Source of the DNA: a virus
Direction: 5' to 3' (one strand)
DNA length: 58,438 nt
Virus record (IMG/VR): IMGVR_UViG_3300034031_000030
Location: 1-58,438 of that record
A model generated the notes under the pieces. The model was given only the letters and a program-made list of their open reading frames with translations, made no database searches and had not been told where the DNA came from. A program made the position numbers and the translations under genes. Shown one piece after another: positions 6,324-48,899 of the stretch. The first letter of the stretch is position 1; each line of letters opens with the position of its first letter.

Positions 6324-6360
6324 CAAAAGCGTACGGTCGAATTCGACCGTACGCTTTTGC
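6323..6360. terminator. Class I palindromic element; candidate bidirectional intrinsic terminator
   Basis: Perfect 38-bp palindrome GCAAAAGCGTACGGTCGAATTCGACCGTACGCTTTTGC lying between convergent genes. Confidence 0.65.
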
Positions 6361-6363
6361 TTT

Positions 6364-6423
6364 CCGGCAAGTAGCGGCAAGTTACCGGCAGAAATACCGG
6401 CAATTCCGGCAATTATTGCCAAA
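6364..6423. repeat. Phased array of five or six CCGGCA(A/G) heptamers at about 10-11 bp spacing
   Basis: Copies start at 6364, 6375 (CGGCAAG), 6385, 6397 and 6406, with a partial copy at 6417. The reverse complement TTGCCGG shares the TGCCG core with the iterons at 25811 and 37636. Confidence 0.8.
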
Positions 6424-6449: not shown

Positions 6450-6986
6450 TCAATCACACCAGCTGCGCGTTTCCCAGCACCCCGGCTTCTGATCGCAGTC
6501 GGCGTGTGGGCAGGCGAGGACACACGCAGCTCGATGCGCAGCGTAGTGAACCTTGAACTCTTCAGGATTATGGCTACCATGGCCGTGATCCATGGATTTG
6601 CAGAATTCGATAAGCCGATCGATGTCAGCGTTGGCCTGTTCTTGGACATCGCTTTCCGGCTGGCGCGTCTTCAGGGCGACGAGCGCTGTCGCAGTTTGGT
6701 CCCACTGCCCGAGAATGATGCGCATGGCCAGTTCCGTGTCGTCGCGCAGCGCACGCGCGGCGGCCTTGGTTTCGACCTTCCCGAAAACGCTGTCTCCCAG
6801 CCGGTCGAGGACTTTGAGCGCCTTGCCAACGCGGTGATCCACCAGGCGTGTCGGCTCGACATTCAGCGCAGCGAGCCTTTCCCTGAAGCGCTCCGCTACA
6901 GCCGGGCTCATCCCGGACTCACGCGCCGCATCAAGAATGGCATCGACGTTGACGACGACAGTGTTGGAGTGCATAAGAAATTCCAT
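6450..6986 (-). CDS. Hypothetical protein with a C-terminal His/Cys cluster
   Basis: The minus-strand ORF has helical-protein-like composition and ends with HGHGSH...ACPHADCDQKPGC. A mirror ORF on the plus strand (6426..6989) cannot be excluded. Confidence 0.45.
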   Translation of the reverse strand: MEFLMHSNTVVVNVDAILDAARESGMSPAVAERFRERLAALNVEPTRLVDHRVGKALKVLDRLGDSVFGKVETKAAARALRDDTELAMRIILGQWDQTATALVALKTRQPESDVQEQANADIDRLIEFCKSMDHGHGSHNPEEFKVHYAAHRAACVLACPHADCDQKPGCWETRSWCD

Positions 6987-7061
6987 TGAACCAATAACAA
7001 AAGCAGGTTCAATAACGCCGGTCCAATAGAATCGGCCCTGCGCTGCTACACTTGGCGAAAA

Positions 7062-8240
7062 TTGGACGGGGCTGCACTGCTACCAACAGCCAGCCCCCGA
7101 TCAACTCTGTTACGGAGAGCTGACGTGGATAATTTAACCCTGCAGGCAGCCCACGGCCATAGTTTGCTGCCCGATAATCAGCTGGCGCTGCCTGATTTTC
7201 CTCATCTGGAGCTGGTGCAGCCGGGCGACTCCGGGAAGCGCACTTACAGCGATTACACCCTGTTACCGACGGATCATCATCCCGTCGCGTTTTATCTGGC
7301 CAGTCTGGCCAAAGGCTCTCACCGAACGATGCTCACCGCGCTGGAGCAGATCGCGGCGATCATCACGCAAGGCTCGATGTCGGCGATGCAATTTCCCTGG
7401 GGCAACCTGCGCGCGCCGCACGTTATGCGCGTGCGCGGCATCATCGTCGAGCGTTATGCTCCATCGACCGCCAAGCGGATGATAAGCGCGCTTAAAGGAG
7501 TGCTGAAAGCCGCTTGGCGTCTCAAGCTAATGCCGAACAAGGCATATTTGCGCGCAATCGATATCCCTCCGGTCCGTGGCCAGAGTGTCATGCGCGGCCG
7601 TGCGCTCACCGTGAAAGAGATCGAGGCGCTATTTACTGCTTGTGCACATCTTCCCGAGGTGGAACAGGGCAGGGGAGTCAGCGCAAAGGGAGCTGCTATC
7701 CTCGCGCACGCAGCGCGCATCCACAGCGCGCGAGACACCGCGCTTCTGGCAGTGCTGGTGGGTGTTGGCCAGCGAAGGCGCGAAGCCGTTCACCTAATGC
7801 TCGATGACTACGACCGGGAAAGTGGCTCCATCACCACGGAGCGGGGCAAAGGAAATGTTTCACGAATTGGTTACGCCGGCGCCGGAGTCCGGGCCGCGCT
7901 CGATGCCTGGCTCGAATTGCGCGGAACAGAGCCGGGGCCGCTGTTTCTGCCGCTTACGCGCTCGGGGCGCATTCTCTGGCGCGCGATGAATGACCAGGCC
8001 GTGATGGACATCCTCATCAAGCGCGCGCGCGAAGCCGGGCTCTCGGATCGCGTGTCGCCCCACGATCTTCGCCGCACCTTCGCCACCAACCTCCAGATCG
8101 AGGGCGTGGACATGGCCACCATCTCCCGGATGATGGGACACAAGAACATTGCGACAACGATGCGCTACGACTTGCGCGATGAGACAGCGAAAAAGAAGGC
8201 TGCAGAAACGCTGCGTATTCCTCTCCGAGCAGCTTCCTAA
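7062..8240 (+). CDS. int: Tyrosine site-specific recombinase / integrase (XerC/D-like with SAM-like N-domain)
   Basis: The C-terminal catalytic region has HDLRRTFATN and GHKNIATTMRYD (His-x-x-Arg and catalytic Tyr context). The exact start is uncertain (TTG at 7062). Confidence 0.9.
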   Translation: MDGAALLPTASPRSTLLRRADVDNLTLQAAHGHSLLPDNQLALPDFPHLELVQPGDSGKRTYSDYTLLPTDHHPVAFYLASLAKGSHRTMLTALEQIAAIITQGSMSAMQFPWGNLRAPHVMRVRGIIVERYAPSTAKRMISALKGVLKAAWRLKLMPNKAYLRAIDIPPVRGQSVMRGRALTVKEIEALFTACAHLPEVEQGRGVSAKGAAILAHAARIHSARDTALLAVLVGVGQRRREAVHLMLDDYDRESGSITTERGKGNVSRIGYAGAGVRAALDAWLELRGTEPGPLFLPLTRSGRILWRAMNDQAVMDILIKRAREAGLSDRVSPHDLRRTFATNLQIEGVDMATISRMMGHKNIATTMRYDLRDETAKKKAAETLRIPLRAAS

Positions 8241-14537: not shown

Positions 14538-16520
14538 TTAGGCTACGCGTCGTGCTGCACCAGTTTCATTTTCGAGTGCAGCCATTTCTGCAATTCGCTG
14601 GTCGATCGCTGCCGGGTCTTCCTCGTAGGCGATAGCACGCATTTCTTCGCGCGTCTTCTTTTCAACGGCTTCGCTGTCTGGATTGCGACGGACACGATCG
14701 CGCCAGAAGTCATCTGCAGTCATTCGCGCGAGAGCATCGCATTCGTAAGTCTCGCGCTCATCTTCGCTGAGATTAGCGATATACCAGTCACACGCGGTAT
14801 CCATACGCTTTTGATCGAGGCTGATTGCAGCATCTCCCAGGCGTGCTGATTCAGTCTTAGGCTGTGCCTGTTTGCGCTGTAAGGCCTGCTGTGCCGCTTT
14901 TTCCCGTTCTTCCTCTGGTTGGTTCAGGTAAGCCTCTCGCTGCACGTCCGCGACGATTTCTCGTACCCAGGTGTCTGGAGGCTCTTGTTGGTGCAGTATG
15001 CGAGTGATGAGTGCCCCGGCCGGTGTGAGGTTTTTCTCGCTTGGATCACGACGGCGATTGTACTCGTCGCAGTACTCCTGTTTGGATTCTGGCCAGTGGT
15101 GCCAGAAAACCAATTGCCATCGCGCGTTCATCGCATACCCTTCGACGATCTGTTTCATTTTTGCCGACTGGCGCCCGATGCCAAGTCGGCCCAGCCGCGC
15201 ACGGAGCGCCTGGTCAGACAATCCCGCCTCGCTCCAGGTAGCAGCGCGCCGCCGGGCCATTTCTAGTGTGAGAACTTCAGGCGCTAGCTCATAAAGTCGA
15301 GTGGCGAGAAATTCTATTGTCGGTGACGTTTCACCTGGATCACTTGTAATTACCGCAGGCAAGGCGCCTTCGTCTTCTTCATATCGAGGTGGGCGCGGTG
15401 AACGTGGTTCATGTGACGATTGTGGAAAGGGTGGTAGGGTTGCGCTATCAGGCGTGGATACAGATTCATTAGAATCCACAACAACAGCAAGGGGGGCCTG
15501 GTGTTGTTTATGAGAAACTTCGTTTTCTGTACCACTCTTTTGTACAGATGATAATGAGGTCAAATCTACCCCACATACGAGGTCATTTTGACCCTGTATG
15601 TCAGGGATGACTGCCCCCACCCCCTGTAAATCTGCCCCCACCTCCGGTTCTCCAGTTCCTTGAAATACCGGGGCGGGGGAAATTTGACCCCGCCCCCGTT
15701 CTATGGCCCGCCGCACGTCAGATTTTTCGTAATGTTTGCGCCCTGGAATCCACCCGTCTTCGGTTAATTCTTTGATTTTCTGAGCATGACGTTGCTGATA
15801 CTCCTCCAGCAATTCCTGCTCGCGCGCATCACCGAGGGCATTGCCAGAAAGGCGTGCTTCCCAGCGCTCGTTTTGCACCTGGTCGAGCGCTTCCTGATAG
15901 AGCCCCGTCAATGGATCGAGCACTTCGCTAACGACGTGATACCAATTGACGTTATCGCCCTTTTCAGTGTTAAGGTCTGCCGTCCAGATCACACCTTGCT
16001 TCCGGCAGCTCCCCAACTTCTTCTTGTAGGTTTCCCGATGAATGTGCCGCAGCTTTCCTGACCACGGATTGAACATCAAGCCTGGTGGAATTCGGACGTA
16101 AAGCCGATCTTCAAATTTTTTAAATTTGAATTCAAGATCTAACAACAGGTCGCGGTAAGGATGGTTGCGCCAATAAACAATCTGCTGAATGATGTCTGCT
16201 TCGTCATCACCGAAGACTGCCTTTAGCCCCGGCTGGACTTGCATAAAAGGTTCGTTTAGCACCAGGCTATTTTGAGAATTATTGAACTGCCTTTCCCGTG
16301 GATGTGGAATCGGTGTCATGCCGTCCCCTTTGTTCCGATCACTTTGATACTGTTTAAAAAATGGCCGTTCAAGATCCCGTGTAGGGCCACTGAAACTTGG
16401 GGTGCCAACAGAATCAGAAGGGATGCCAGAAATGGCCGGCGTGAGGCCCGACCGCCCATGTTGGAAGAGCGATGCGCAAGCAGCAGCAACGACGCGAAGC
16501 GACGACGCGAAAGAAAACAT
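14538..16520 (-). CDS. Large hypothetical protein; candidate replication initiator by position only
   Basis: A 660-codon ORF downstream of parAB. It has two structured halves joined by a low-complexity linker whose DNA (15555-15700) is dense in short repeats. The start is uncertain (alternative Met at residue 67). Confidence 0.4.
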   Translation of the reverse strand: MFSFASSLRVVAAACASLFQHGRSGLTPAISGIPSDSVGTPSFSGPTRDLERPFFKQYQSDRNKGDGMTPIPHPRERQFNNSQNSLVLNEPFMQVQPGLKAVFGDDEADIIQQIVYWRNHPYRDLLLDLEFKFKKFEDRLYVRIPPGLMFNPWSGKLRHIHRETYKKKLGSCRKQGVIWTADLNTEKGDNVNWYHVVSEVLDPLTGLYQEALDQVQNERWEARLSGNALGDAREQELLEEYQQRHAQKIKELTEDGWIPGRKHYEKSDVRRAIERGRGQISPAPVFQGTGEPEVGADLQGVGAVIPDIQGQNDLVCGVDLTSLSSVQKSGTENEVSHKQHQAPLAVVVDSNESVSTPDSATLPPFPQSSHEPRSPRPPRYEEDEGALPAVITSDPGETSPTIEFLATRLYELAPEVLTLEMARRRAATWSEAGLSDQALRARLGRLGIGRQSAKMKQIVEGYAMNARWQLVFWHHWPESKQEYCDEYNRRRDPSEKNLTPAGALITRILHQQEPPDTWVREIVADVQREAYLNQPEEEREKAAQQALQRKQAQPKTESARLGDAAISLDQKRMDTACDWYIANLSEDERETYECDALARMTADDFWRDRVRRNPDSEAVEKKTREEMRAIAYEEDPAAIDQRIAEMAALENETGAARRVA

Positions 16521-24080: not shown

Positions 24081-24863
24081 CTACCCTGCCAATGTTTCGA
24101 TGTAGCGCGTGGCCAGCAGCCGGGCGACGGTCGCCGCTTCCCAAGCTCCGCCGCGCTTGGTTTTATGACCATTGGCCGTCAAATGCGCGGCGATACGCCG
24201 CAGAGAAAGCCCGCCTTCGTGCAGCTCGCGCACGAGGTTGACGGTTTTCATTTCGTCTTCATCCTCGACGAGCATCTTCACGCCGTCGGCACCTTCGATG
24301 GTTTTGTATCCAAGCGGTGTTGTCCCCAGTCGCTCCTTGCGCGCTTTCTTCTGGCCAAGCGCGGCGGCGGTGCGTTCGGCGATGATGCCGCGCTCCCATT
24401 CCGCGATGGTAGCGATGAAGGTGCGCATCATGCGGCCTGTCGCCGTGCTGGTGTCGATGTGTTCCGCGATCGTCGCCCATTCGCCGCCGGTGTCTGCTAC
24501 CAGCGCATCGAGCGTGTACAGATCGGGCACAGAGCGCGTGAAACGGTCCAGCTTGAGCGCGAGAAGAACGCGGCCGGGTTGCATCGCGCGAAGGGCTCGA
24601 CGAAGAGCCGGGCGCTCTAAATTCTTGGCACTGACACCGGCATCTTCAAATACCTCGAGTAACTCCCAGCCATTCGCCGCACATTGCGCCTGGATGCGCG
24701 CGCGCTGGTTATCAAGGGATAGACCGGAATCCGCCTGTTCGTCGCTAGAAACGCGAATATAGCCCAAACAAAGCGATACTTTGACCGCCTGTTTCGGTCG
24801 TTTTTTTGTGCTTATTTTTTTGTGCGTTTTTGCGCCGTTTTTGGGTGCATATTTCGTGAGCAT
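24081..24863 (-). CDS. Small serine recombinase (resolvase/invertase family)
   Basis: GYIRVSSDEQADSGLSLDNQ (catalytic Ser region), with a C-terminal HTH-like LSLRRIAAHLTANGHKTKRGG. The annotated ATG gives an unusual ~30-aa Lys-rich leader; TTG just before GYIRV is an alternative start. Confidence 0.9.
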   Translation of the reverse strand: MLTKYAPKNGAKTHKKISTKKRPKQAVKVSLCLGYIRVSSDEQADSGLSLDNQRARIQAQCAANGWELLEVFEDAGVSAKNLERPALRRALRAMQPGRVLLALKLDRFTRSVPDLYTLDALVADTGGEWATIAEHIDTSTATGRMMRTFIATIAEWERGIIAERTAAALGQKKARKERLGTTPLGYKTIEGADGVKMLVEDEDEMKTVNLVRELHEGGLSLRRIAAHLTANGHKTKRGGAWEAATVARLLATRYIETLAG

Positions 24864-24913: not shown

Positions 24914-24974
24914 GGGTGTAAACAAAGGTCGAATCCGAGGGTGTAACGAATAAGGACTGATTGTTTACAAACCC
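24914..24974. promoter_or_regulatory. Three related 12-14-bp sites (GGGTGTAAACAA, GGGTGTAACGAA, inverted TTGTTTACAAACCC) upstream of the serine recombinase; res-like candidate
   Basis: Sites at 24914-24925, 24939-24950 and 24961-24974, read directly. Confidence 0.35.
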
Positions 24975-25223
24975 TCGCCCATGGGTTTATGTCCCCGGAT
25001 GCTCATCTGGCGCGTCTCGGCAATGCCATGGCAGTAGCGCGGCAGTCCAATAGATTGCAGAAAAAGGCCGCGTGACACGGCCAATATCGTTCCGAATTCA
25101 GCTGGAAACGGAGTTTTTTGTTGCTTCCATTGCCGTGAGAGTGCCGTGACGCTGCCGAGCTAAAAGTGCGATGTCTGATAGAAGTTGTTTCATGTCAGAA
25201 TAAGCGTGCTTTTAACAGCCCCT

Positions 25224-25577
25224 ATGAGCGTATCTCTCTCCATTTCGCAACCGGTATCGTCGCCGTTTTCGACGATCGAAAGAATGACACATTCGCTTTC
25301 AGGCGCTTGCTCCAAGCGCATCACCAATCAGGTCACGGATCACGAAGCTGCCAAACAGCGCATCATTGACCGGCTGCCCGTGCGTGACGAAGATGAGTGG
25401 TACACGCCGGAAGATATTGCGCCTCTTCTTGGAGTCAAAGTCCGCCAGGTGCGGTACTACTGTCACGCCATCTGGAAGAACCACGATCCGAAGTCTCAAT
25501 GGCGTCTGCGTCGCGCCGAAGCGGAGCGCCTTATCCGCAAAGCCTATTTCTCTGGCTCCAAGATCCCGCGGGTCTAG
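25224..25577 (+). CDS. Putative DNA-binding regulator, paralogue of 37055..37564
   Basis: WYTPEDIAPLLGVKVRQVRYYCHAIW...WRL aligns with FYQCPDFAEILGIRAATFRHHCRAVM...FRL in the other copy. The start is uncertain (25185, 25224 or 25284). Confidence 0.5.
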   Translation: MSVSLSISQPVSSPFSTIERMTHSLSGACSKRITNQVTDHEAAKQRIIDRLPVRDEDEWYTPEDIAPLLGVKVRQVRYYCHAIWKNHDPKSQWRLRRAEAERLIRKAYFSGSKIPRV

Positions 25578-25591
25578 TCTCACTTCTCCCC

Positions 25592-25789
25592 ATGCGCCTG
25601 CTGTTGCTTGAAACCGCTCAGTTCATCGTACTTTTGTTGTTATGCGTTCATCTCGCCCTCGTCGTTGGATCTCTTTGCTTTCTCCCCCACGCCACCACGC
25701 ACGAGCAGTTTCTACTTGCCGTCCTTTTTGCCATTTTCAACGCATGGCACTGTGACTTGAACTTGCGCCGTCTATCGTCTCTCTTCTGA
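25592..25789 (+). CDS. Possible small hydrophobic protein
   Basis: MRLLLLETAQFIVLLLLCVHLALVVGSLCF... No clear RBS. Confidence 0.3.
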   Translation: MRLLLLETAQFIVLLLLCVHLALVVGSLCFLPHATTHEQFLLAVLFAIFNAWHCDLNLRRLSSLF

Positions 25790-25810
25790 TTTTGCGACGG
25801 TGATTTCGCG

Positions 25811-25849
25811 GAATTGCCGCGCGACTGCCGCGCCGTTGCCGCGCCGTGA
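25811..25849 (+). repeat. Iteron block A: 39 bp identical to 37636-37674 (TGCCGCGCGAC, TGCCGCGCCGT, TGCCGCGCCGT at 11-bp period)
   Basis: GAATTGCCGCGCGACTGCCGCGCCGTTGCCGCGCCGTGA was compared directly. Looser similarity extends over 25803-25862. Confidence 0.95.
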
Positions 25850-25984
25850 ATGCTGCCTGTTTCACGCGTAAACCCCTGTTCGTTAGCGTTCGCTGCATTT
25901 GTCCGCATCACCGGCCACTCGCCGATTTATTAGCTTTGCGCGCCACAAATGTAGCGAACCAATTTTTGAACTGATGGGGTCGGT

Positions 25985-26308
25985 ATGAAATCGAGCAGCC
26001 GCGCGGCAAAGAGCCTGAGCGCAATCCTGGTGACTTTGGCAGCCATATTCGGTGCTCTGGTGGTGGATGCCACCTTTCGCGCATCTATCCCGCCTCTGGC
26101 CTTCACGATCGTCGCCGCGCTCGGTGCCGGCATCATCGCACTCCGCAAATTCCTGGTCAAAGACACGCCAAGGCGCAAAGCGCGGCGACGGCGCACTGCA
26201 GCCAAGAAAGCCGCTGCAGCTGCCGCCGCTGATTCTCCTCTCAACCCTGAAATTGCCACAACCCCCGAATCGAAGGAACACAATGAAGAGTCGAATACCG
26301 CTGGTTGA
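25985..26308 (+). CDS. Holin-like protein (two transmembrane segments and a basic C-terminal tail)
   Basis: LSAILVTLAAIFGALVV and PPLAFTIVAALGAGIIAL, then RRKARRRR. Immediately upstream of, and overlapping, the endolysin gene. Confidence 0.6.
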   Translation: MKSSSRAAKSLSAILVTLAAIFGALVVDATFRASIPPLAFTIVAALGAGIIALRKFLVKDTPRRKARRRRTAAKKAAAAAAADSPLNPEIATTPESKEHNEESNTAG

Positions 26309-26861
26309 TCTCGACCGCCTGGAACATGTTATCGCGCAGATGGAGCGGCGCGGCGTGAAGTACGGTCTGGGTGCTAAAGCTGAAGGCGGGAAGCACCCGG
26401 AAACTGGCAGGCGCTTTAACCCGCGCAGTAACGGCACCATTTCAACACCGGTCAGCAGCATCGATAACATCGACTGTTCCGGTCTTGTCCGCTACGCCCT
26501 GCACTACGCCACCAAGGGCGCCCTCCGCATCCCCGATGGCAGCCAACGCCAGCGCGAGTGGTGCGAGGACATGGCACGGCTGGGTTTGTTGCATCCCGTT
26601 GGCCGCTATGCCGATGCCGCTAAGCACATGACGGGCAAGCGCCTTTTTATCTGCTTCATCAAGCCGTTCACCAATGGCTGTGGCCCCGTCGGCCATGTCT
26701 GGCTTTTGAGCCAGTACGACGATGGAGATAATGGCACTCCTGCCGGAACTCTGGAGTCCCACGGCGGCGTTGGCGTGAACAGCCGCGCCTGGAACTCGCG
26801 CACGCTCGTTCGCGAGTTTTATTCGTGCTACGAGCTGCTGACTGTCCAGGGAGCGGCGTAA
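26283..26861 (+). CDS. Endolysin, NlpC/P60-type cysteine peptidase
   Basis: NIDCSGLVRYALH (catalytic Cys context) and GHVWLL (His). Confidence 0.8.
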   Translation: MKSRIPLVDLDRLEHVIAQMERRGVKYGLGAKAEGGKHPETGRRFNPRSNGTISTPVSSIDNIDCSGLVRYALHYATKGALRIPDGSQRQREWCEDMARLGLLHPVGRYADAAKHMTGKRLFICFIKPFTNGCGPVGHVWLLSQYDDGDNGTPAGTLESHGGVGVNSRAWNSRTLVREFYSCYELLTVQGAA

Positions 26862-27160: not shown

Positions 27161-27568
27161 ATGAATTCAACCCCCCACAAACCGCGCCTGCTGATTGCGG
27201 AAGACAACGGCTCGATCCGTGACGTTCTCGCCATTCTTTTGGCCGTAGAAGGCTTTGATGCTGTTTTCGCCATCAACGGCGCTCAGGCCCTGAAAGCGTT
27301 TCAGGATGCTGAGAGCGCAGGACGTGCGTTCGACCTCTGCATCTTCGACCGTCAGATGCCAGTTTTGGGCGGCTTTGAAGCCGCTTGTCTGGTGCGTTGC
27401 GAGAGCGCGCACGTCCCCATCGTTTTCTTGACGGCCGCGCCCCACGAAGTCACGCCCGAGATGATGCAGGAAGTTGGTGCCGTAGCCCTGTGGGCCAAGC
27501 CCAACGACGTTGTTGGCATGGCGGTCCTGATTCGGGAGGTGCTGGCCAGTGCCGAAAAAGATTCCTGA
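27161..27568 (+). CDS. Stand-alone response-regulator receiver (CheY-like) domain protein
   Basis: LLIAEDN (acidic pair), CIFDRQMPVLGG (phospho-acceptor Asp context), VFLTA (Thr), WAKP (Lys-Pro). Confidence 0.85.
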   Translation: MNSTPHKPRLLIAEDNGSIRDVLAILLAVEGFDAVFAINGAQALKAFQDAESAGRAFDLCIFDRQMPVLGGFEAACLVRCESAHVPIVFLTAAPHEVTPEMMQEVGAVALWAKPNDVVGMAVLIREVLASAEKDS

Positions 27569-36960: not shown

Positions 36961-36978
36961 CACCGATCAATAAATATG

Positions 36979-37003
36979 CGGCATCACAAAAAAGTGATGC
37001 CGC
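36979..37003. terminator. Hairpin GCGGCATCAC-AAAAA-GTGATGCCGC
   Basis: A 10-bp perfect stem lying 19 nt after the stop codon. Confidence 0.55.
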
Positions 37004-37012
37004 CACTAATAC

Positions 37013-37044
37013 AAAGAGTACGGTCGAAATCGACCGTACTCTTT
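37013..37044. terminator. Class I palindromic element
   Basis: AAAGAGTACGGTCGAAATCGACCGTACTCTTT followed by TT. Confidence 0.65.
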
Positions 37045-37054
37045 TTCGTAAAAG

Positions 37055-37564
37055 ATGAAAAGCACGTTGACCGTATGGCAAAGCGGTGAATACAAAGTGT
37101 GGGGATCTCGGGATGCTATTAACGCTTCTTCCGACCCGGACTTTGTGGTTAATATCGCGCTCGATGAAATAGACTGCTTGGCTCAGGCTGAGACGAATGA
37201 ACTGGATCGTTTGGTGGATGTTGTATTCGCACGATTGCCTGCAGGTCAAATCTTTTATCAGTGCCCCGATTTCGCAGAGATACTAGGAATTCGCGCAGCG
37301 ACTTTTCGGCATCATTGCCGCGCTGTGATGCCGAATAACGGGGATGATTATCGTTTTCGCCTTGACTGCGAAAAGCATATTCATGGACTCCGCCGTGTCC
37401 TACAGAAGATCATTCTCACGGGGCGCAAAACTCACCCAGAGTTTCAGCTATCGCATCGCTACAGAAGCCAGCGGCAAAAAGCATTTTCGACTCAAAACTG
37501 TGGGAGTAAATTAAAAAGCCGCCCAAATGCAAAAGCAAAGGGCGGGAATTACTGGAAATTATAA
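37055..37564 (+). CDS. Putative DNA-binding regulator, paralogue of 25224..25577
   Basis: Shared motif block (see 25224). Followed by a class II palindrome, a class I element and iteron block B. Confidence 0.5.
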   Translation: MKSTLTVWQSGEYKVWGSRDAINASSDPDFVVNIALDEIDCLAQAETNELDRLVDVVFARLPAGQIFYQCPDFAEILGIRAATFRHHCRAVMPNNGDDYRFRLDCEKHIHGLRRVLQKIILTGRKTHPEFQLSHRYRSQRQKAFSTQNCGSKLKSRPNAKAKGGNYWKL

Positions 37565-37570
37565 CCCGAG

Positions 37571-37591
37571 GATGTGAACCAGGTTCACATC
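37571..37591. repeat. Class II palindrome, perfect 21 bp (GATGTGAACCAGGTTCACATC)
   Basis: Read directly. Confidence 0.95.
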
Positions 37592-37619
37592 GGAGTACGG
37601 TCGAATTCGACCGTACTCC
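37592..37619. terminator. Class I palindromic element
   Basis: GGAGTACGGTCGAATTCGACCGTACTCC, a perfect 28 bp. Confidence 0.6.
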
Positions 37620-37635
37620 TCGCTGTATTTCGGTC

Positions 37636-37674
37636 GAATTGCCGCGCGACTGCCGCGCCGTTGCCGCGCCGTGA
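37636..37674 (+). repeat. Iteron block B: 39 bp identical to 25811-25849
   Basis: Direct comparison. It lies 56 nt upstream of the protease/scaffold start. Confidence 0.95.
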
Positions 37675-37729
37675 TGCCGCCCTGCCCTGTTGTCAATCTT
37701 GTCCTCGAAGCCTTGATGTTTCGAGAACA

Positions 37730-39931
37730 ATGAGCAACGCAACCAATTCCTCGCCCGCCCCAAAATCTGAAAACTTTTTCATTCCGTTCGCGCCTCTGTC
37801 CCGTGGCGACCGCGATAACCGCATCGTGCGTGGCTATTGCTACACCACGGCGCGCGTGCGTGGCGACCGCTACAACCTGAAGCGCTCCGCTTTGGAGCGT
37901 TCGGCCAAGCGTTACATGGAAATGCCGTGCATCCGTGCGATGCACCAGCAGATCGCAGCCGGCAAAGCTCTCAGCGTTTCTTTCGATGACAAGGGCTGTT
38001 TTATCGAAGCCTTCATCAGCGACGATAAGGAATGGCAGAAGTGCGTTGATGGCGTGTATCGCGGCTTTTCGGTTTATGGCCATCCCCTCATCGCACGCGG
38101 AATGGACATCGAGGAGTTCGACTGGATTGAAACCAGCCTCGTCGATCGTCCCAAAGACGCCGGCTCTCTCTTTTCCGTCGGGCGCGTTGAAGGTACGGTC
38201 GAATCCGTCACCACCATCGAGCTTCCCGAAGATGCGACCGATGAGCAGGTCGAACTCGCCCGGTGCGAAGTCTCTTCATCTTACGTTGTCCCCTCAGAAG
38301 AAAGTGAGGGAGACATCGACGAATCGACCGTATCTCTTGGCCCGGTCGAGCGCGGCTACAACCCTGCCCAACCACGGGACGGCGAAGGCAAATGGACCAT
38401 CGTGCGCGGTCATCGCGTGAGCACAACCGGTGCGGCCATTACCCACGACCACATCCATCATGCCGTTGCCAAATTCGGACTTGGCGACTTAGCCCAGAAG
38501 AAACTGCTGCAGGCCCACGCCGACGGCAAGCTCACGAACGACCATCACCTGTACCGCGCCATCGCTCACGCGACGGATGCGCATGATACAGCGAGTGGCG
38601 TGACAACGGGCTCCCACAATCCCGGACCGTGGCACTGGGACGAAGCCATCAAGGCTCATGGCCACGGCGGAACCCACGAAGAAAAGCGCACCTGGGGCGC
38701 ACCTCACGCTGACGACTACAAGCACCTTACCGACAAGGAGCTGGCGACTCACCTCACCGAGAAGATCGCAGAAGCTCCGGTCAAGGCTCACAAGGATCTC
38801 GTCAAAGGCGACCGCGTGCTGCACGGCGGTCGATTGGTCGAGATCACCCACGTTAAGCAGCGCAAGGACAAGCCCAATACGGTTAAGGCACACGTCGTTC
38901 ATCCCGACTCCGGGAAGTTGGAAGAAGGCTCTCTGCACTCCGTTTCGCACTCCAGCGATTCATTCAGCGGCGCTAACCCTTCGACCTTCCACATCCCCAC
39001 CAGCCTCGTCATGGGCGCTGCTGCCGAGTTGCGTCGTCGCAAAGGTTTGTCACCTGTGAAACGCGGGGAAGAATCTGAACCTGGTTCACAAATCGACGGC
39101 GAAGGCGTTGGTGAAGCCAGCGCCGAAGCTGCAGGCGATGCTGTCGAGCGCGCTATCACTTCCGAGACTCCGGGCTTACCAGTCCGTGAAAACCTTGAAG
39201 GTGAAATCGTTCGCGGTGACTATGACACCGAATCGGTTGAAGCCGAGATCGACGGGTTGATCGAAGCCCTGTGGGATGCCTACGACGGTGAAGAAAGCGA
39301 ACCCCTTGTTCGCCGCGCTGTTGCGGCCGCTCTCGCGGTTCTTAATGGCGATTCCGCATCCGCATCGAGCGTTGCCCGCTCTGAAGGCGAAGCCATCGGC
39401 GACAACGCTCCTAACATTGAAACCACTTGCTCGGTTGTTGATAACGGCATCAGCAACGACATCGAGCCTAACCCGGACATTGTTCAACTGGTTGCACGCG
39501 CCGAAAGCGCTGAATCCGAACTTGAATCCGTCCGCCGTCTCGCAGACGAATCATTGTCCACAGTCCGCGCCTCCGAAGAATCGGCCTTGAGCCGGTTGGA
39601 AGCTGCAGAAGCGACAGTGACCGAGCTTGCAGACGCGCTCAAGAAACAAGAAGAGGAAATCGCAAGCCTTCGCGCCGTTCCCCTGAACGCCAGTCCTGTC
39701 CGCCGTAGTGAATCCTCTGAATCGACCCAGACCGGGGCAGTCGCAGCTCCGCGCGCGTTTGCGGCTAACGCAATGCTGGACACGACCCAGAGCAACGCGG
39801 CCCGACGCACAGCGCTGCAGACCGAATTTCAAGAGCTTCAGCGCTCTCTGCACACCGAACCCAGCACCGCCAAGCGCGACGCTGGAGCATCTCGCCTCAT
39901 CGTCATCCAAGACGAATTGACGCGGCTGTAA
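37730..39931 (+). CDS. Prohead protease fused to a scaffold-like C-terminal region
   Basis: The N-terminal ~170 aa resemble HK97-family prohead proteases (FFIPFAPLSRGDRDNRIVRGY...AMHQ...GFSVYG...ETSLVDRPKDAGS). The C-terminus is acidic and coiled-coil (SELESVRRLADESL...VTELADALKKQEEEIASLRA). It lies directly upstream of the MCP. Confidence 0.7.
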   Translation: MSNATNSSPAPKSENFFIPFAPLSRGDRDNRIVRGYCYTTARVRGDRYNLKRSALERSAKRYMEMPCIRAMHQQIAAGKALSVSFDDKGCFIEAFISDDKEWQKCVDGVYRGFSVYGHPLIARGMDIEEFDWIETSLVDRPKDAGSLFSVGRVEGTVESVTTIELPEDATDEQVELARCEVSSSYVVPSEESEGDIDESTVSLGPVERGYNPAQPRDGEGKWTIVRGHRVSTTGAAITHDHIHHAVAKFGLGDLAQKKLLQAHADGKLTNDHHLYRAIAHATDAHDTASGVTTGSHNPGPWHWDEAIKAHGHGGTHEEKRTWGAPHADDYKHLTDKELATHLTEKIAEAPVKAHKDLVKGDRVLHGGRLVEITHVKQRKDKPNTVKAHVVHPDSGKLEEGSLHSVSHSSDSFSGANPSTFHIPTSLVMGAAAELRRRKGLSPVKRGEESEPGSQIDGEGVGEASAEAAGDAVERAITSETPGLPVRENLEGEIVRGDYDTESVEAEIDGLIEALWDAYDGEESEPLVRRAVAAALAVLNGDSASASSVARSEGEAIGDNAPNIETTCSVVDNGISNDIEPNPDIVQLVARAESAESELESVRRLADESLSTVRASEESALSRLEAAEATVTELADALKKQEEEIASLRAVPLNASPVRRSESSESTQTGAVAAPRAFAANAMLDTTQSNAARRTALQTEFQELQRSLHTEPSTAKRDAGASRLIVIQDELTRL
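39073..39091. repeat. Class II palindrome copy inside the protease/scaffold CDS (reads EPGSQ)
   Basis: atcTGAACCTGGTTCACAa. Confidence 0.75.
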
Positions 39932-46757: not shown

Positions 46758-48899
46758 ATGCCAAATACTCCCATTCCCGCCAATGCTTCTGCCGCCGCAC
46801 TCCCGACGCCGACACAACCAGCGGCGCTCACGATGCTGGCGAACGTGCTTGAACGCAGCCTTACCAAAGCCTTTGTTTCGAAAGCATTCTCCAACGCGGT
46901 AAATCCCGGACGATCCGTTTCGTCTGTTGGCACGAGTCCACTCGGCCAATTTTTGTCGCAGATTCAGTCCCGTGCCTCCCAGCCTTTAGTCCAACTCGGG
47001 CAACAGCGTGCCGGTATCAGTCGCTCCGTCAAGACGCTTTTCAGCGCGCCACCTTCTACACACTCTGTGGTTTCCGTGGGCAGCACAGTGCTGAATCGTT
47101 TTCTGACGCAAACCCAGGCCCGCACGTCACAACCAGTGACCCAAGTCACGCAAAGCCACGCGCAGTTGCTCACAGGCATCAATCGCTCCGTGCAGGCCTT
47201 AAATGACCGCTGGCGCCTCGCAGGGCAGGGCAGGGACGCAATGGGGCGAGTCACCGGAATAAACAGCCCGGTTGGGCGCGTTGCACAAACCGTGGGGCTG
47301 GGACCGGCTTATCGCACGGGCCGCACGGCGCTGCAGCAGCACGTCACGCCTCACCTCACCTCTGGCTCGGCTCATCTGTCCAGCTTGTTTGCCGGTGCGC
47401 GCAGTTCGCTTCAAAACATCGGCACCCGCTGGAACCAGAGCGGGCAGCAGCGTGATGCTCAGGGCCGTTTTCTGGGTAATCAGCCGAACTTCGGTTCGCG
47501 CGTGTTTCAGACGATGGGCCTCGGCGATTTATATAACGCCGGGCGCAGTGCCTCTGGAACCGGTGGTGGTGCAGTGGCAGCCGGTGGAGCCGCTCTCAGC
47601 TTCTTGACCAATCGAAGCGGTGGCGGCGGGCTCCTCGGTTTAATTCTCGCGCCGGTAAAAATCGCTGCCGGCATTTTTGCCGGTGCGCTTGCCGTCGGCT
47701 CGGGCGCCCTGTTTTTGTTCGTTCGAAGCGTCCAGGGGATGACGCGAGAGATGGTCCAGGTCGCACGCGAAATCACAGCGATCCGTAACAACACCGGGCG
47801 TGGCATCGGCGACTCGATGAAGGGCTACTTCGGCCTTCGTGCTGCGGGATTCTCCGGCGCGTCTGCGTCGGGCTTTCTGTCGCAGGCCGGACCGCTCGGT
47901 GACGCACGATCGCGCGCCTGGAACCTGCCATCGATGACCGATCCGGGCTTCGCGCTGCGCCTGGCCGAAAAGAGCCAGGGCATGAGCTTTTTTGGCCGTA
48001 AAGCGATGCTGGAAAGCATCAGCGGCGGTCAGGCTTCGCCCGAATTGCTCCAGCTCGCCAACTCGCGTCCCGAGTCCATCAAGCGTGAACAGGGATTTCT
48101 TGCGCGGACGCAGAATGCGCTCGGCGTCACGCCGGAAGCGATTCGTCGTTTGTCCGACGAGTGGCCGCTCTTTCAGAACCGCGTATCGATGTTCACCGAA
48201 ACCGTAAAGATGCGTTTCATCTCCTCGATGCTTCCTTTGATGGAGCAGGGGATGGACCGTCTTTCGGTTGTCCTCGAAAGCAACTCCGGGCGCATCAGCA
48301 AAGCGATCGAAAATGGCACGCGCTGGCTTTACGTTGATTTGCCCGGTCATCTGGTGACGGGCGCCCGCGTCGGGCTAAATGCCATCGAGATGATTTCGGA
48401 AGGCTTCTTCAATTTTGCGGACGGCCTTGCCGGTTTCTTGCGCGCGATCGGGGAAGGGCAGAGCGGGCTGTTTTCTTTCTTCGAGTTCATCGGCAGCGTC
48501 ATCGACTCGATGATGGCCAGTGCAAAGTTCTTGGGCTTGACCGACAAACAGACCGACATCGCCGGCGATATGCAGAACTGGCGGAACTCCGGCACTCCTG
48601 AAAACTTGGCGAAGAACATCGAAGCCTTCACCCAGTCCGGGCGCGATAAGACGGGCAGCGCCCTCGATTGGGCGCGCGGCGTTCTAGACGAAACGGATAA
48701 GTTCCTTGGCTCACGCGATCAGCGCGACGCTGATTTCTCATCGAGTCTGAAGGAATTGACGGCTGCCACAAAAGATGGTCATGCAAAAATCGTCGGCGCG
48801 ATCGAGAAAACCAATGAAAGTGGACAGGGCACCGACAGCGTTTTGCAGGCTCTCAAAGGCCACATTGGAAAGGAATCGTTTATTGTGGCTTCTCGCTAG
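46758..48899 (+). CDS. Tail tape measure protein
   Basis: 713 aa, positioned after the chaperone frameshift pair. It has internal sequence repeats and a central hydrophobic Gly-rich block (GGGLLGLILAPVKIAAGIFAGALAVGSGALFLF). Confidence 0.85.
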   Translation: MPNTPIPANASAAALPTPTQPAALTMLANVLERSLTKAFVSKAFSNAVNPGRSVSSVGTSPLGQFLSQIQSRASQPLVQLGQQRAGISRSVKTLFSAPPSTHSVVSVGSTVLNRFLTQTQARTSQPVTQVTQSHAQLLTGINRSVQALNDRWRLAGQGRDAMGRVTGINSPVGRVAQTVGLGPAYRTGRTALQQHVTPHLTSGSAHLSSLFAGARSSLQNIGTRWNQSGQQRDAQGRFLGNQPNFGSRVFQTMGLGDLYNAGRSASGTGGGAVAAGGAALSFLTNRSGGGGLLGLILAPVKIAAGIFAGALAVGSGALFLFVRSVQGMTREMVQVAREITAIRNNTGRGIGDSMKGYFGLRAAGFSGASASGFLSQAGPLGDARSRAWNLPSMTDPGFALRLAEKSQGMSFFGRKAMLESISGGQASPELLQLANSRPESIKREQGFLARTQNALGVTPEAIRRLSDEWPLFQNRVSMFTETVKMRFISSMLPLMEQGMDRLSVVLESNSGRISKAIENGTRWLYVDLPGHLVTGARVGLNAIEMISEGFFNFADGLAGFLRAIGEGQSGLFSFFEFIGSVIDSMMASAKFLGLTDKQTDIAGDMQNWRNSGTPENLAKNIEAFTQSGRDKTGSALDWARGVLDETDKFLGSRDQRDADFSSSLKELTAATKDGHAKIVGAIEKTNESGQGTDSVLQALKGHIGKESFIVASR

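Follow-up and report, generated by a model that had tools for sequence, protein, structure and literature searches.

Helically phased repeat arrays at the starts of lysis/packaging and head genes in a temperate phage: putative operators of a small winged-helix-like protein family

Xis, Cox and Apl protomers bind head to tail on repeats one helical turn apart, and Apl, which has seven sites at promoters and five at the attachment (att) site, needs three adjacent operators for efficient binding (PMC7498355). The DNA analysed here, called the window throughout, is a complete IMG/VR virus record of 58,438 bp (IMGVR_UViG_3300034031_000030; GC 56.7%, with identical 127-bp copies at its two ends) from a temperate phage, in which two identical 39-bp blocks, A and B, each carry three copies of one short unit at exactly 11-bp spacing, ahead of the lysis/packaging genes and of the head genes respectively. 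A small gene upstream of block A, gene A, codes for the protein that is proposed below as their binding partner, and a divergent paralogue, gene B, lies upstream of block B. The closest described counterparts, 186 Apl and P2/HP1 Cox, resemble this arrangement in that a small protein of the helix-turn-helix (HTH) or winged HTH (wHTH) type (probably so in the case of A) is encoded next to a recombinase and heads a lytic operon, and in that direct repeats one turn apart occur at several distant loci (PMC7498355; PMC3936717). They differ in that protein A has no detectable sequence relation to either (nor does its family have a Pfam model), in that the window arrays stand before lysis/packaging and head genes and not in the lysis-lysogeny switch, and in that the recombinase beside the A-type gene is of the serine type in two of the three phages compared.

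In Pseudomonas aeruginosa one AlpA monomer binds a 6-bp element that occurs once, between the -35 and the -10, and has a terminator downstream (PMC9371919). AlpA and lambdoid Q resemble the case proposed here, in which lysis genes shortly after the regulator gene would be turned on by its small, HTH-like product; however, three phased 8-bp units are found here, and the terminator-like hairpins lie upstream of the array. With Mu C/Mor and lambda CII, one small phage protein controls several dispersed operons, including those of lysis and head genes; the sites of Mu C and Mor have dyad symmetry, and those of CII are direct TTGC repeats (TTGC-N6-TTGC) on one helix face, two repeats at 10 bp that straddle the -35 region. 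Protein A, as proposed, would likewise be one small phage protein with several dispersed operons, but it has no sequence relation to these regulators.

Phased arrays in the window

The two blocks, two further arrays that the first-pass annotation of this DNA had not described, and genes A and B are located as follows.

25811..25849, plus strand: block A, three TGCCGCGC units (starting at 25815, 25826 and 25837) exactly 11 bp apart, 135 nt from the ATG of a holin-like gene at 25985
37636..37674, plus strand: block B, three TGCCGCGC units (starting at 37640, 37651 and 37662), identical to block A, 55 nt from the ATG of a protease/scaffold gene at 37730
25131..25163, plus strand: degenerate triple TGCCGTGA, TGCCGTGA, TGCCGAGC, phased at exactly 11 bp and placed 61 nt ahead of the gene A ATG
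6363..6416, minus strand: five TTGCCGG-type units at spacings of 10, 12, 11 and 10, about 700 bp from a tyrosine integrase gene
25224..25577, plus strand: gene A, 117 amino acids (aa), start uncertain (alternative 25284), of a small winged-helix-like family
37055..37564, plus strand: gene B, a low-GC insert between class I hairpins, whose 169-aa product is a divergent paralogue of A

Identity of the 39-bp block at both loci, which the first-pass annotation had claimed, was recovered as an exact match, and the 39-mer is the longest exact repeat of the genome outside a family of hairpins. The looser similarity reported around it corresponds to an alignment of 56 columns, 51 of them identical (25803-25857 vs 37627-37681). 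The 11-bp phasing of the three units and the distances from each block to the next gene likewise hold (Tandem Repeats Finder returns a period of 11 and 3.1 copies for block A); the fourth unit that had been proposed is present, as TGCTGCC or TGCCGCC, but falls out of phase, 14 or 13 bp past the third.

Phasing of this kind is not expected by chance. Triples of TGCCG at exactly 11 bp occur three times in the window and in none of 300 dinucleotide-preserving shuffles, and when spacings of 10-12 bp are allowed five are observed, against a shuffle mean of 0.01. The fifth TGCCG chain, at 47666, has 12-bp spacing, lies within a coding region and is taken to be codon periodicity. The degenerate array at 25131-25163 sits in the divergent spacer adjoining the serine recombinase gene. 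The array at 6363-6416 lies between the stop of a minus-strand open reading frame (ORF; 6450..6986), whose translation has no A-family motifs on inspection by eye, and a bidirectional hairpin at 6329-6357, and shares with the other arrays the TGCCG core and the phasing alone.

A class II palindrome and a class I hairpin immediately precede block B, and no terminator-like site occurs between block A and the next gene. All four arrays were folded as RNA, and the blocks have z-scores of +0.3 (A) and -0.4 (B), no better than shuffled sequence, and there is no Rfam match and no tRNA gene in the window; the near-zero z-scores and the lack of any Rfam match rule the arrays out as an RNA element. The evidence supports the blocks as non-random, non-coding, helically phased elements at the starts of the lysis/packaging and head genes. 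The array element is real, is conserved and probably has a function.

The A family and its arrays in two relatives

Sequence comparison places A and B as distant members of one small, undescribed winged-helix-like family. BLASTP aligns the two with E 5e-6 and 29% identity across 49 residues. Compared by hhalign with a family profile built without either protein, A scores 99% probability (E 2e-18) and B 88% (E 2.9e-6) over 80 columns, which is the whole 80-residue core; because both match this independent profile, the similarity of A to B that had been noticed by reading the translations is real. A full HMMER scan of 1.84 billion representative proteins gave 19 relatives of A, and a profile search gave 37 family proteins including A and B, all of them unnamed and none with a precomputed Pfam domain on record; the members all come from metagenomic phages and phage-plasmids. 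Exact-word protein searches with A and with B returned only A and B themselves. The family conserves LP..D..EWY...(D/E)IAPLLG, H.RDLWP and G(H/Y)(W/Y)RL and, after these, a basic helix and G(R/K)K.

An AlphaFold model of A, for which the family alignment was used, has a pLDDT (predicted local distance difference test) score of 78.6, with a disordered N-terminus and four helices at 35-109; over core residues 45-110 the score is about 90. A is likely a DNA-binding, wHTH-like protein: the top Foldseek matches of the model, though all weak, are nearly all winged-helix DNA-binding regulators (Rex, ArsR/SmtB, MntR) and phage 'HTH', 'excisionase' or 'MerR-like' proteins, and Pfam matches below threshold go to wHTH families. 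No curated excisionase or HTH_17-type model matches the family significantly. The matches below threshold are those of A to phrog_66 'excisionase and transcriptional regulator' (E 0.0026), of 2 of the 37 members to HTH_17, and, among the Pfam matches of the family, one to the RNase R winged helix; PF05930 Phage_AlpA is absent from the Pfam matches of the family at E <= 0.1.

The layout recurs in two relatives, a 3.1-kb assembled contig (L126) and a 62.6-kb provirus record (G001, also L208). L126 carries an A homologue (48% identical) divergent from the gene of a 259-aa serine recombinase, itself 60% identical to that of the window. About 150 nt ahead of the A homologue stands an array of TGCCGCTTT units 11 bp apart (1529 and 1540), and a second array, TGCCGCTTTGG, TGCCGCCTTGG and CGCCGCAAAGT (2016, 2027, then CGCCGC), begins 12 nt past its stop; a 20-mer is common to both arrays at 19 of 20 positions. 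The next genes code for a small membrane protein and a weakly endolysin-like protein.

In G001 the A homologue, also 48% identical, is divergent from a tyrosine integrase gene, and GCC[GA][TC] triples phased at 11 bp number exactly three in the entire 62.6 kb, each of them sharing the strand of the A gene. Of strict GCCG triples there are 2, where shuffled sequence gives 0.045 on average and 1 at most. The first array is upstream of the A homologue. The second lies about 8 nt past its stop and 112 nt ahead of a weakly NlpC/P60-like gene (23.1 bits, against a cut-off of 23 bits). The third comes after another 9.9 kb; a strong terminator hairpin directly precedes it, and the GTG start of a head-scaffold gene (phrog_4866, E 3e-13) follows closely. 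Arrays two and three are alike, in that both begin CCCCGCCGTTT, end GCCGTTTCTCGC and continue with GGCCATA(T/G)CG. The late proteins of G001 have no BLASTP similarity to those of the window; thus what the two phages have in common is the regulator gene and the placement of the arrays, and not the flanking genes.

The unit itself is different in each phage (TGCCGCGC in the window, TGCCGCTTT in L126 and CCGCCGTTT in G001), and the A-type gene is divergent from a recombinase gene in all three, of the serine type in the window and L126 and of the tyrosine type in G001. A phage-specific unit in a constant layout is the pattern that would be expected of a phage-encoded DNA-binding protein co-evolving with its operators.

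These relatives also bear on the view, taken in the first-pass annotation, that each locus is one copy of a duplicated cassette of regulator gene and binding site. Gene A does not adjoin block A, since 233 nt and a possible 65-codon ORF lie between them. At the DNA level only the 56-column block is common to both loci, B occupies a stretch of about 48% GC between hairpins and looks like an insert, and there is no B-like gene beside the head-proximal array of G001. For these reasons the loci are not considered a duplicated cassette. What survives of the proposed regulator and site modules is the link of the arrays to a small HTH-like family, with two relatives alike; the pairing of gene and array, which the first-pass annotation had proposed to look for in related phages, is seen as an A homologue flanked by arrays in L126 and G001, and not at the head array of G001.

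Gene B coincides with a GC trough (about 48%) between two class I hairpins, the second at 37593-37621, and its codon use is atypical for the window phage; low GC, hairpin flanks and codon use together make its context appear typical of an acquired insert. Two minor features of the gene may be recorded. Its ATG lies only about 10 nt past the T-run of the class I hairpin, with no obvious ribosome-binding site, and the stretch coding for its putative recognition helix (37286-37328) includes GGAATTCGCGCAGCGACTTTTCGGCATCATTGCCGCGCTGTGA, which is 74% identical to the block (a marginal match, E 0.006 in a two-sequence search).

Wider searches extend the family without extending the full layout. The phage database contains no close relatives of the window phage by DNA or capsid protein, and a terminase search of viral and metagenome contigs gave only L006 (68% identical). 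A-type genes are carried by a wider family of 40-52-kb phage-plasmid-like contigs (L098-L104) with ParA/ParB, a rep-like gene, an extracytoplasmic function (ECF)-type sigma factor and often an S24 peptidase-type gene (LexA/CI-like). In these contigs the A-type gene follows a spacer of about 200 bp and in several overlaps or abuts the DNA methylase gene that follows, and its adjacency to a recombinase is not kept; a search of 80 recombinase loci gave none with an A-family gene nearby. The spacer holds a conserved T-rich element, e.g. TTGACGTTTTGATGCCGTTTCTCGCC, in which two or three TG(A/C)CGTTT units, spaced by 11-12 bp, can be made out by eye; this might fit autoregulation, to which little weight is attached.

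Candidate binding partners of the arrays

The reading that we favour, and to which we assign about an even chance, is that the arrays are cooperative operators of the A-type protein at the starts of late operons, with binding and a positive effect on transcription predicted from sequence and layout. Three adjacent 8-bp units with 3-bp spacers, one per helical turn, would present themselves on a single face of the DNA. Because units and spacers of these lengths match the Xis/Cox/Apl architecture, the small winged-helix-like A is proposed to line up head to tail and cooperatively along the array, in which case binding would need all three units; B may bind these arrays as well. The arrays would mark three control points, which relatives have too: one in the promoter region of gene A itself, one where the lysis/packaging operon starts and one at a post-terminator restart before the head genes. 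At these A would activate promoters that have no recognisable -35 element, coupling lysis/packaging and head expression to the level of A.

Block B and the head array of G001 both lie past terminator-like hairpins and 30-55 nt ahead of the first head gene. Activation of a restart promoter is favoured because these two arrays stand past terminator-like hairpins and near head genes, and because neither block has a -35/-10 pair of the sigma-70 type. A position after terminators fits a new promoter and not an antiterminator loading site, which had been among the roles first suggested; a site of the Q/AlpA type is accordingly unlikely, given the hairpins upstream of block B and of the G001 head array and the three phased units. 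Replication or packaging iterons, also among the roles first suggested, have nothing in their favour here. As to the sign of the effect, the main alternative by analogy with Apl and Cox would be repression or roadblocking by the same arrays.

Several observations weigh against operator arrays of A. The layout is carried by only two relatives, one of them a 3.1-kb contig, and the closest phage by terminase (L006) has no arrays (none before its head gene), no hairpins and no B homologue. In the wider family (L098-L104) the A-type gene is coupled to DNA methylase genes and has no downstream array. Within the window, no gene follows the array at 6363-6416 in its own orientation, there is no usable promoter of the sigma-70 type at either block (a consensus that may not be that of the host), and the A/T-rich hexamers seen about 20 nt past the arrays were chosen by eye and post hoc. 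As regards the protein, A scores 16.9 bits against PF12728 HTH_17, under the 27-bit cut-off, and has no PDB sequence match; the best Foldseek matches of its model reach only E 0.07-1, none significant.

A broader form of the same proposal would make the A family an unrecognised class of master regulator that switches on its own gene and the lysis/packaging and head operons, perhaps serving also as a recombination directionality factor for serine and tyrosine recombinases, with B, inserted right next to the operator of the head operon, as an acquired competitor or co-regulator on the same array. We consider this unlikely; under it B could, for instance, act as an anti-activator or mediate cross-talk among co-resident phages.

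The rival that survives best, though a doubtful one, holds that A is a dual protein of the Apl/Cox type, mainly a recombination directionality factor and repressor, so that the arrays would bend DNA for the neighbouring recombinases, the five-unit array would be an att-arm array and transcription from the promoters would be repressed or blocked. The position of the A-type gene, divergent from a recombinase gene in all three phages, agrees with this, as do the weak matches of A to phrog_66 and HTH_17, and the 186 att site, with its five Apl repeats, offers a parallel to the array of five repeats, spaced by 10-12 bp, that lies near the integrase. G001, however, is integrated with int and the A gene still adjacent, so that the spacer between them is not attP, and its record has no array elsewhere; nor has an att site been located in the window, which has no tRNA gene. 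To our knowledge, the directionality factors of serine recombinases are not array binders of the Xis type.

Improbable, in our estimate, is that another factor reads the arrays, which would then lie near gene A by coincidence. Response-regulator boxes too are built of three 8-bp units with 3-bp spacers, and a host OmpR/PhoB-type response regulator could be the partner, as could replication or partition proteins of the phage-plasmid, for which the arrays would be iterons (for copy control or handcuffing) or centromere-like sites. Relatives do carry ParA and ParB, and an unrelated contig (L001) has nearly the same octamer in 11-bp arrays round AT-rich, origin-like DNA. Against this, the blocks have a high GC content and are a long way from the rep-like gene (14538..16520), that gene and its homologues in relatives have internal repeats of another kind, and the receiver-domain protein of the phage has no DNA-binding domain. 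Related phages keep the layout around the A gene but have different units, which argues for a phage-encoded, co-evolving partner instead.

It is very unlikely that the host RNA polymerase holoenzyme reads the arrays directly, with no dedicated regulator, as core promoter or UP-like elements such as repeated TTGCCG hexamers of the -35 type. The units do start TTGCCG or CTGCCG, resembling TTGACA, and the arrays are placed where promoters are expected; but none of the units has a -10 element at a workable distance, three helically phased copies are not needed by a promoter, and the unit differs between relatives (though their hosts may differ as well). A phage sigma factor as reader of the arrays was also considered and set aside, none being detectable in the window, although relatives have ECF-type sigma factors. 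Finally, a functionless 11-bp slippage repeat, copied between loci by recent gene conversion or recombination, has very little to recommend it: perfect TGCCGCGCNNN 11-bp microsatellites do occur at 79 loci in GC-rich bacterial genomes, so that slippage can give rise to such repeats, but the arrays of the relatives lie at equivalent positions with other unit sequences, all arrays are intergenic and on the sense strand, and the flanks have diverged around an identical 39-bp core.

If the arrays are operators of A, an uncharacterised, Pfam-less protein family gains a testable function and a predicted DNA target, and a phage group with unmapped promoters gains likely control points for its late operons; arrays with one site per turn would link a small excisionase-like protein to the expression of structural genes. 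No new mechanism is indicated by the arrays or by the A family. The protein family is new and the regulatory design is known, the arrays being most likely, as a prediction, the docking site of a new family of late-gene regulators.

Gene order and minor features

The remaining features of the two array-bearing regions and of the integrase locus are these.

24081..24863, minus strand: serine recombinase, 260 aa, divergent from gene A (PF00239 E 6.9e-36; phrog_95 E 1.5e-62)
7125..8240, plus strand: tyrosine integrase, near the five-unit array (PF00589 E 6.7e-26)
25592..25789, plus strand: possible 65-codon hydrophobic (membrane) ORF between gene A and block A, a candidate in the frame of ORF 25397..25789
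25985..26308, plus strand: holin-like ORF, first gene past block A, with two hydrophobic segments and a basic tail (called from sequence only)
37016..37044, plus strand: class I hairpin with T-run, terminator-like, closing the packaging/portal operon just ahead of gene B
37572..37621, plus strand: class II palindrome ATGTGAACCAGGTTCACAT, then class I hairpin GGAGTACGGTCGAATTCGACCGTACTCC, directly upstream of block B
37730..39931, plus strand: protease/scaffold-type head gene, first past block B (phrog_21715 E 1.9e-10; phrog_9427 head maturation protease E 0.0011)

Read along the plus strand, the serine recombinase gene (itself on the minus strand) is followed by gene A, the possible 65-codon ORF, block A and the holin-like ORF; then come two ORFs of no family, the gene of a receiver-domain protein, those of the small and large terminase subunits, a 2236-codon ORF, a small ORF and the class I hairpin at 37016-37044; and finally gene B, the class II palindrome with its class I hairpin, block B, the protease/scaffold-type gene and, next after it, an SU10-type major capsid gene. 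The possible ORF at 25592..25789 has no family match in Pfam or PHROG. The 'lysis module' label of the first-pass annotation reflects membrane-protein-like sequence only; neither 25985..26308 nor 26283..26861 has a Pfam or PHROG family match.

The serine recombinase consists of a resolvase domain and only the first half of a 'Recombinase' domain, both in the window (24081-24863, minus strand) and in L126 (464-1243, minus strand); because its length is similar in the two phages (260 and 259 aa), it is a conserved short form and not a truncated pseudogene. Between its gene and gene A, at 24914-24975, there is an inverted repeat on TGTAAACAA / TTGTTTACA, which reads GGGTGTAAACAA ... TTGTTTACAAACCC and part of which recurs a third time at 24939-24949; the matching place in L126 (1280-1358), beside its 60%-identical recombinase, has CTGTAAACAAAA / TTTTGTTTACAG. 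The inverted repeat is a candidate recombinase site. A T-rich 11-bp repeat, TTTTTGCGCCG, is present in 2.5 copies at 24817-24843, where it overlaps the annotated 5' end of the recombinase ORF, and resembles the conserved element that precedes the A-family genes of the phage-plasmid relatives.

The end of the packaging/portal operon (36978-37044) is marked by tandem unlike hairpins, GCGGCATCAC...GTGATGCCGC and then the class I hairpin with its T-run. A stand-alone receiver-domain protein, a response regulator with no output domain, is kept among these phages (27161-27568 in the window, 1021-1389 in L006, 16863-17327 in L102). In the window and L006 its gene immediately precedes that of the small terminase; in L102 it stands two genes ahead of the terminase region.

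A scan for the triple-unit pattern located the perfect TGCCGCGCNNN microsatellites (L019-L097), all in unrelated GC-rich bacterial genomes; one Methylobacterium assembly and one Planctomycetota metagenome-assembled genome each have identical copies on several of their contigs. Among viral contigs the same scan returned one, the unrelated L001 (IMGVR_UViG_3300017963_000029; 82 kb), in which, at 6890-7240, (G/T)TGCCGCG units spaced by 10-11 bp surround AT-rich DNA on both strands; immediately after a D5-type primase-helicase gene, these arrays are probably a replication origin.

Internal direct repeats occur in the rep-like genes of the phage-plasmid relatives (L098 3096-3217, L099 7863-7946, L104 7530-7635) as GGGTCAC at 12 bp and as 42-bp and 21-bp repeats, and look like origins inside the gene; the 660-codon rep-like gene of the window has only short repeats at the corresponding place (15578-15700). 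Dispersed TGT...CC(A/C)GG...ACA palindromes, e.g. TTGTGTCCCAGGGACACA and TGTTGCCCAGGGCAACA, are found in relatives (L098 at 796, 4236 and 4654; L101 at 3207 and 9498; L208 at about 4615) and resemble the class II TGTGAACCWGGTTCACA family of the window. They may be the sites of a conserved dimeric protein, for example one of the ParB type of phage-plasmids.

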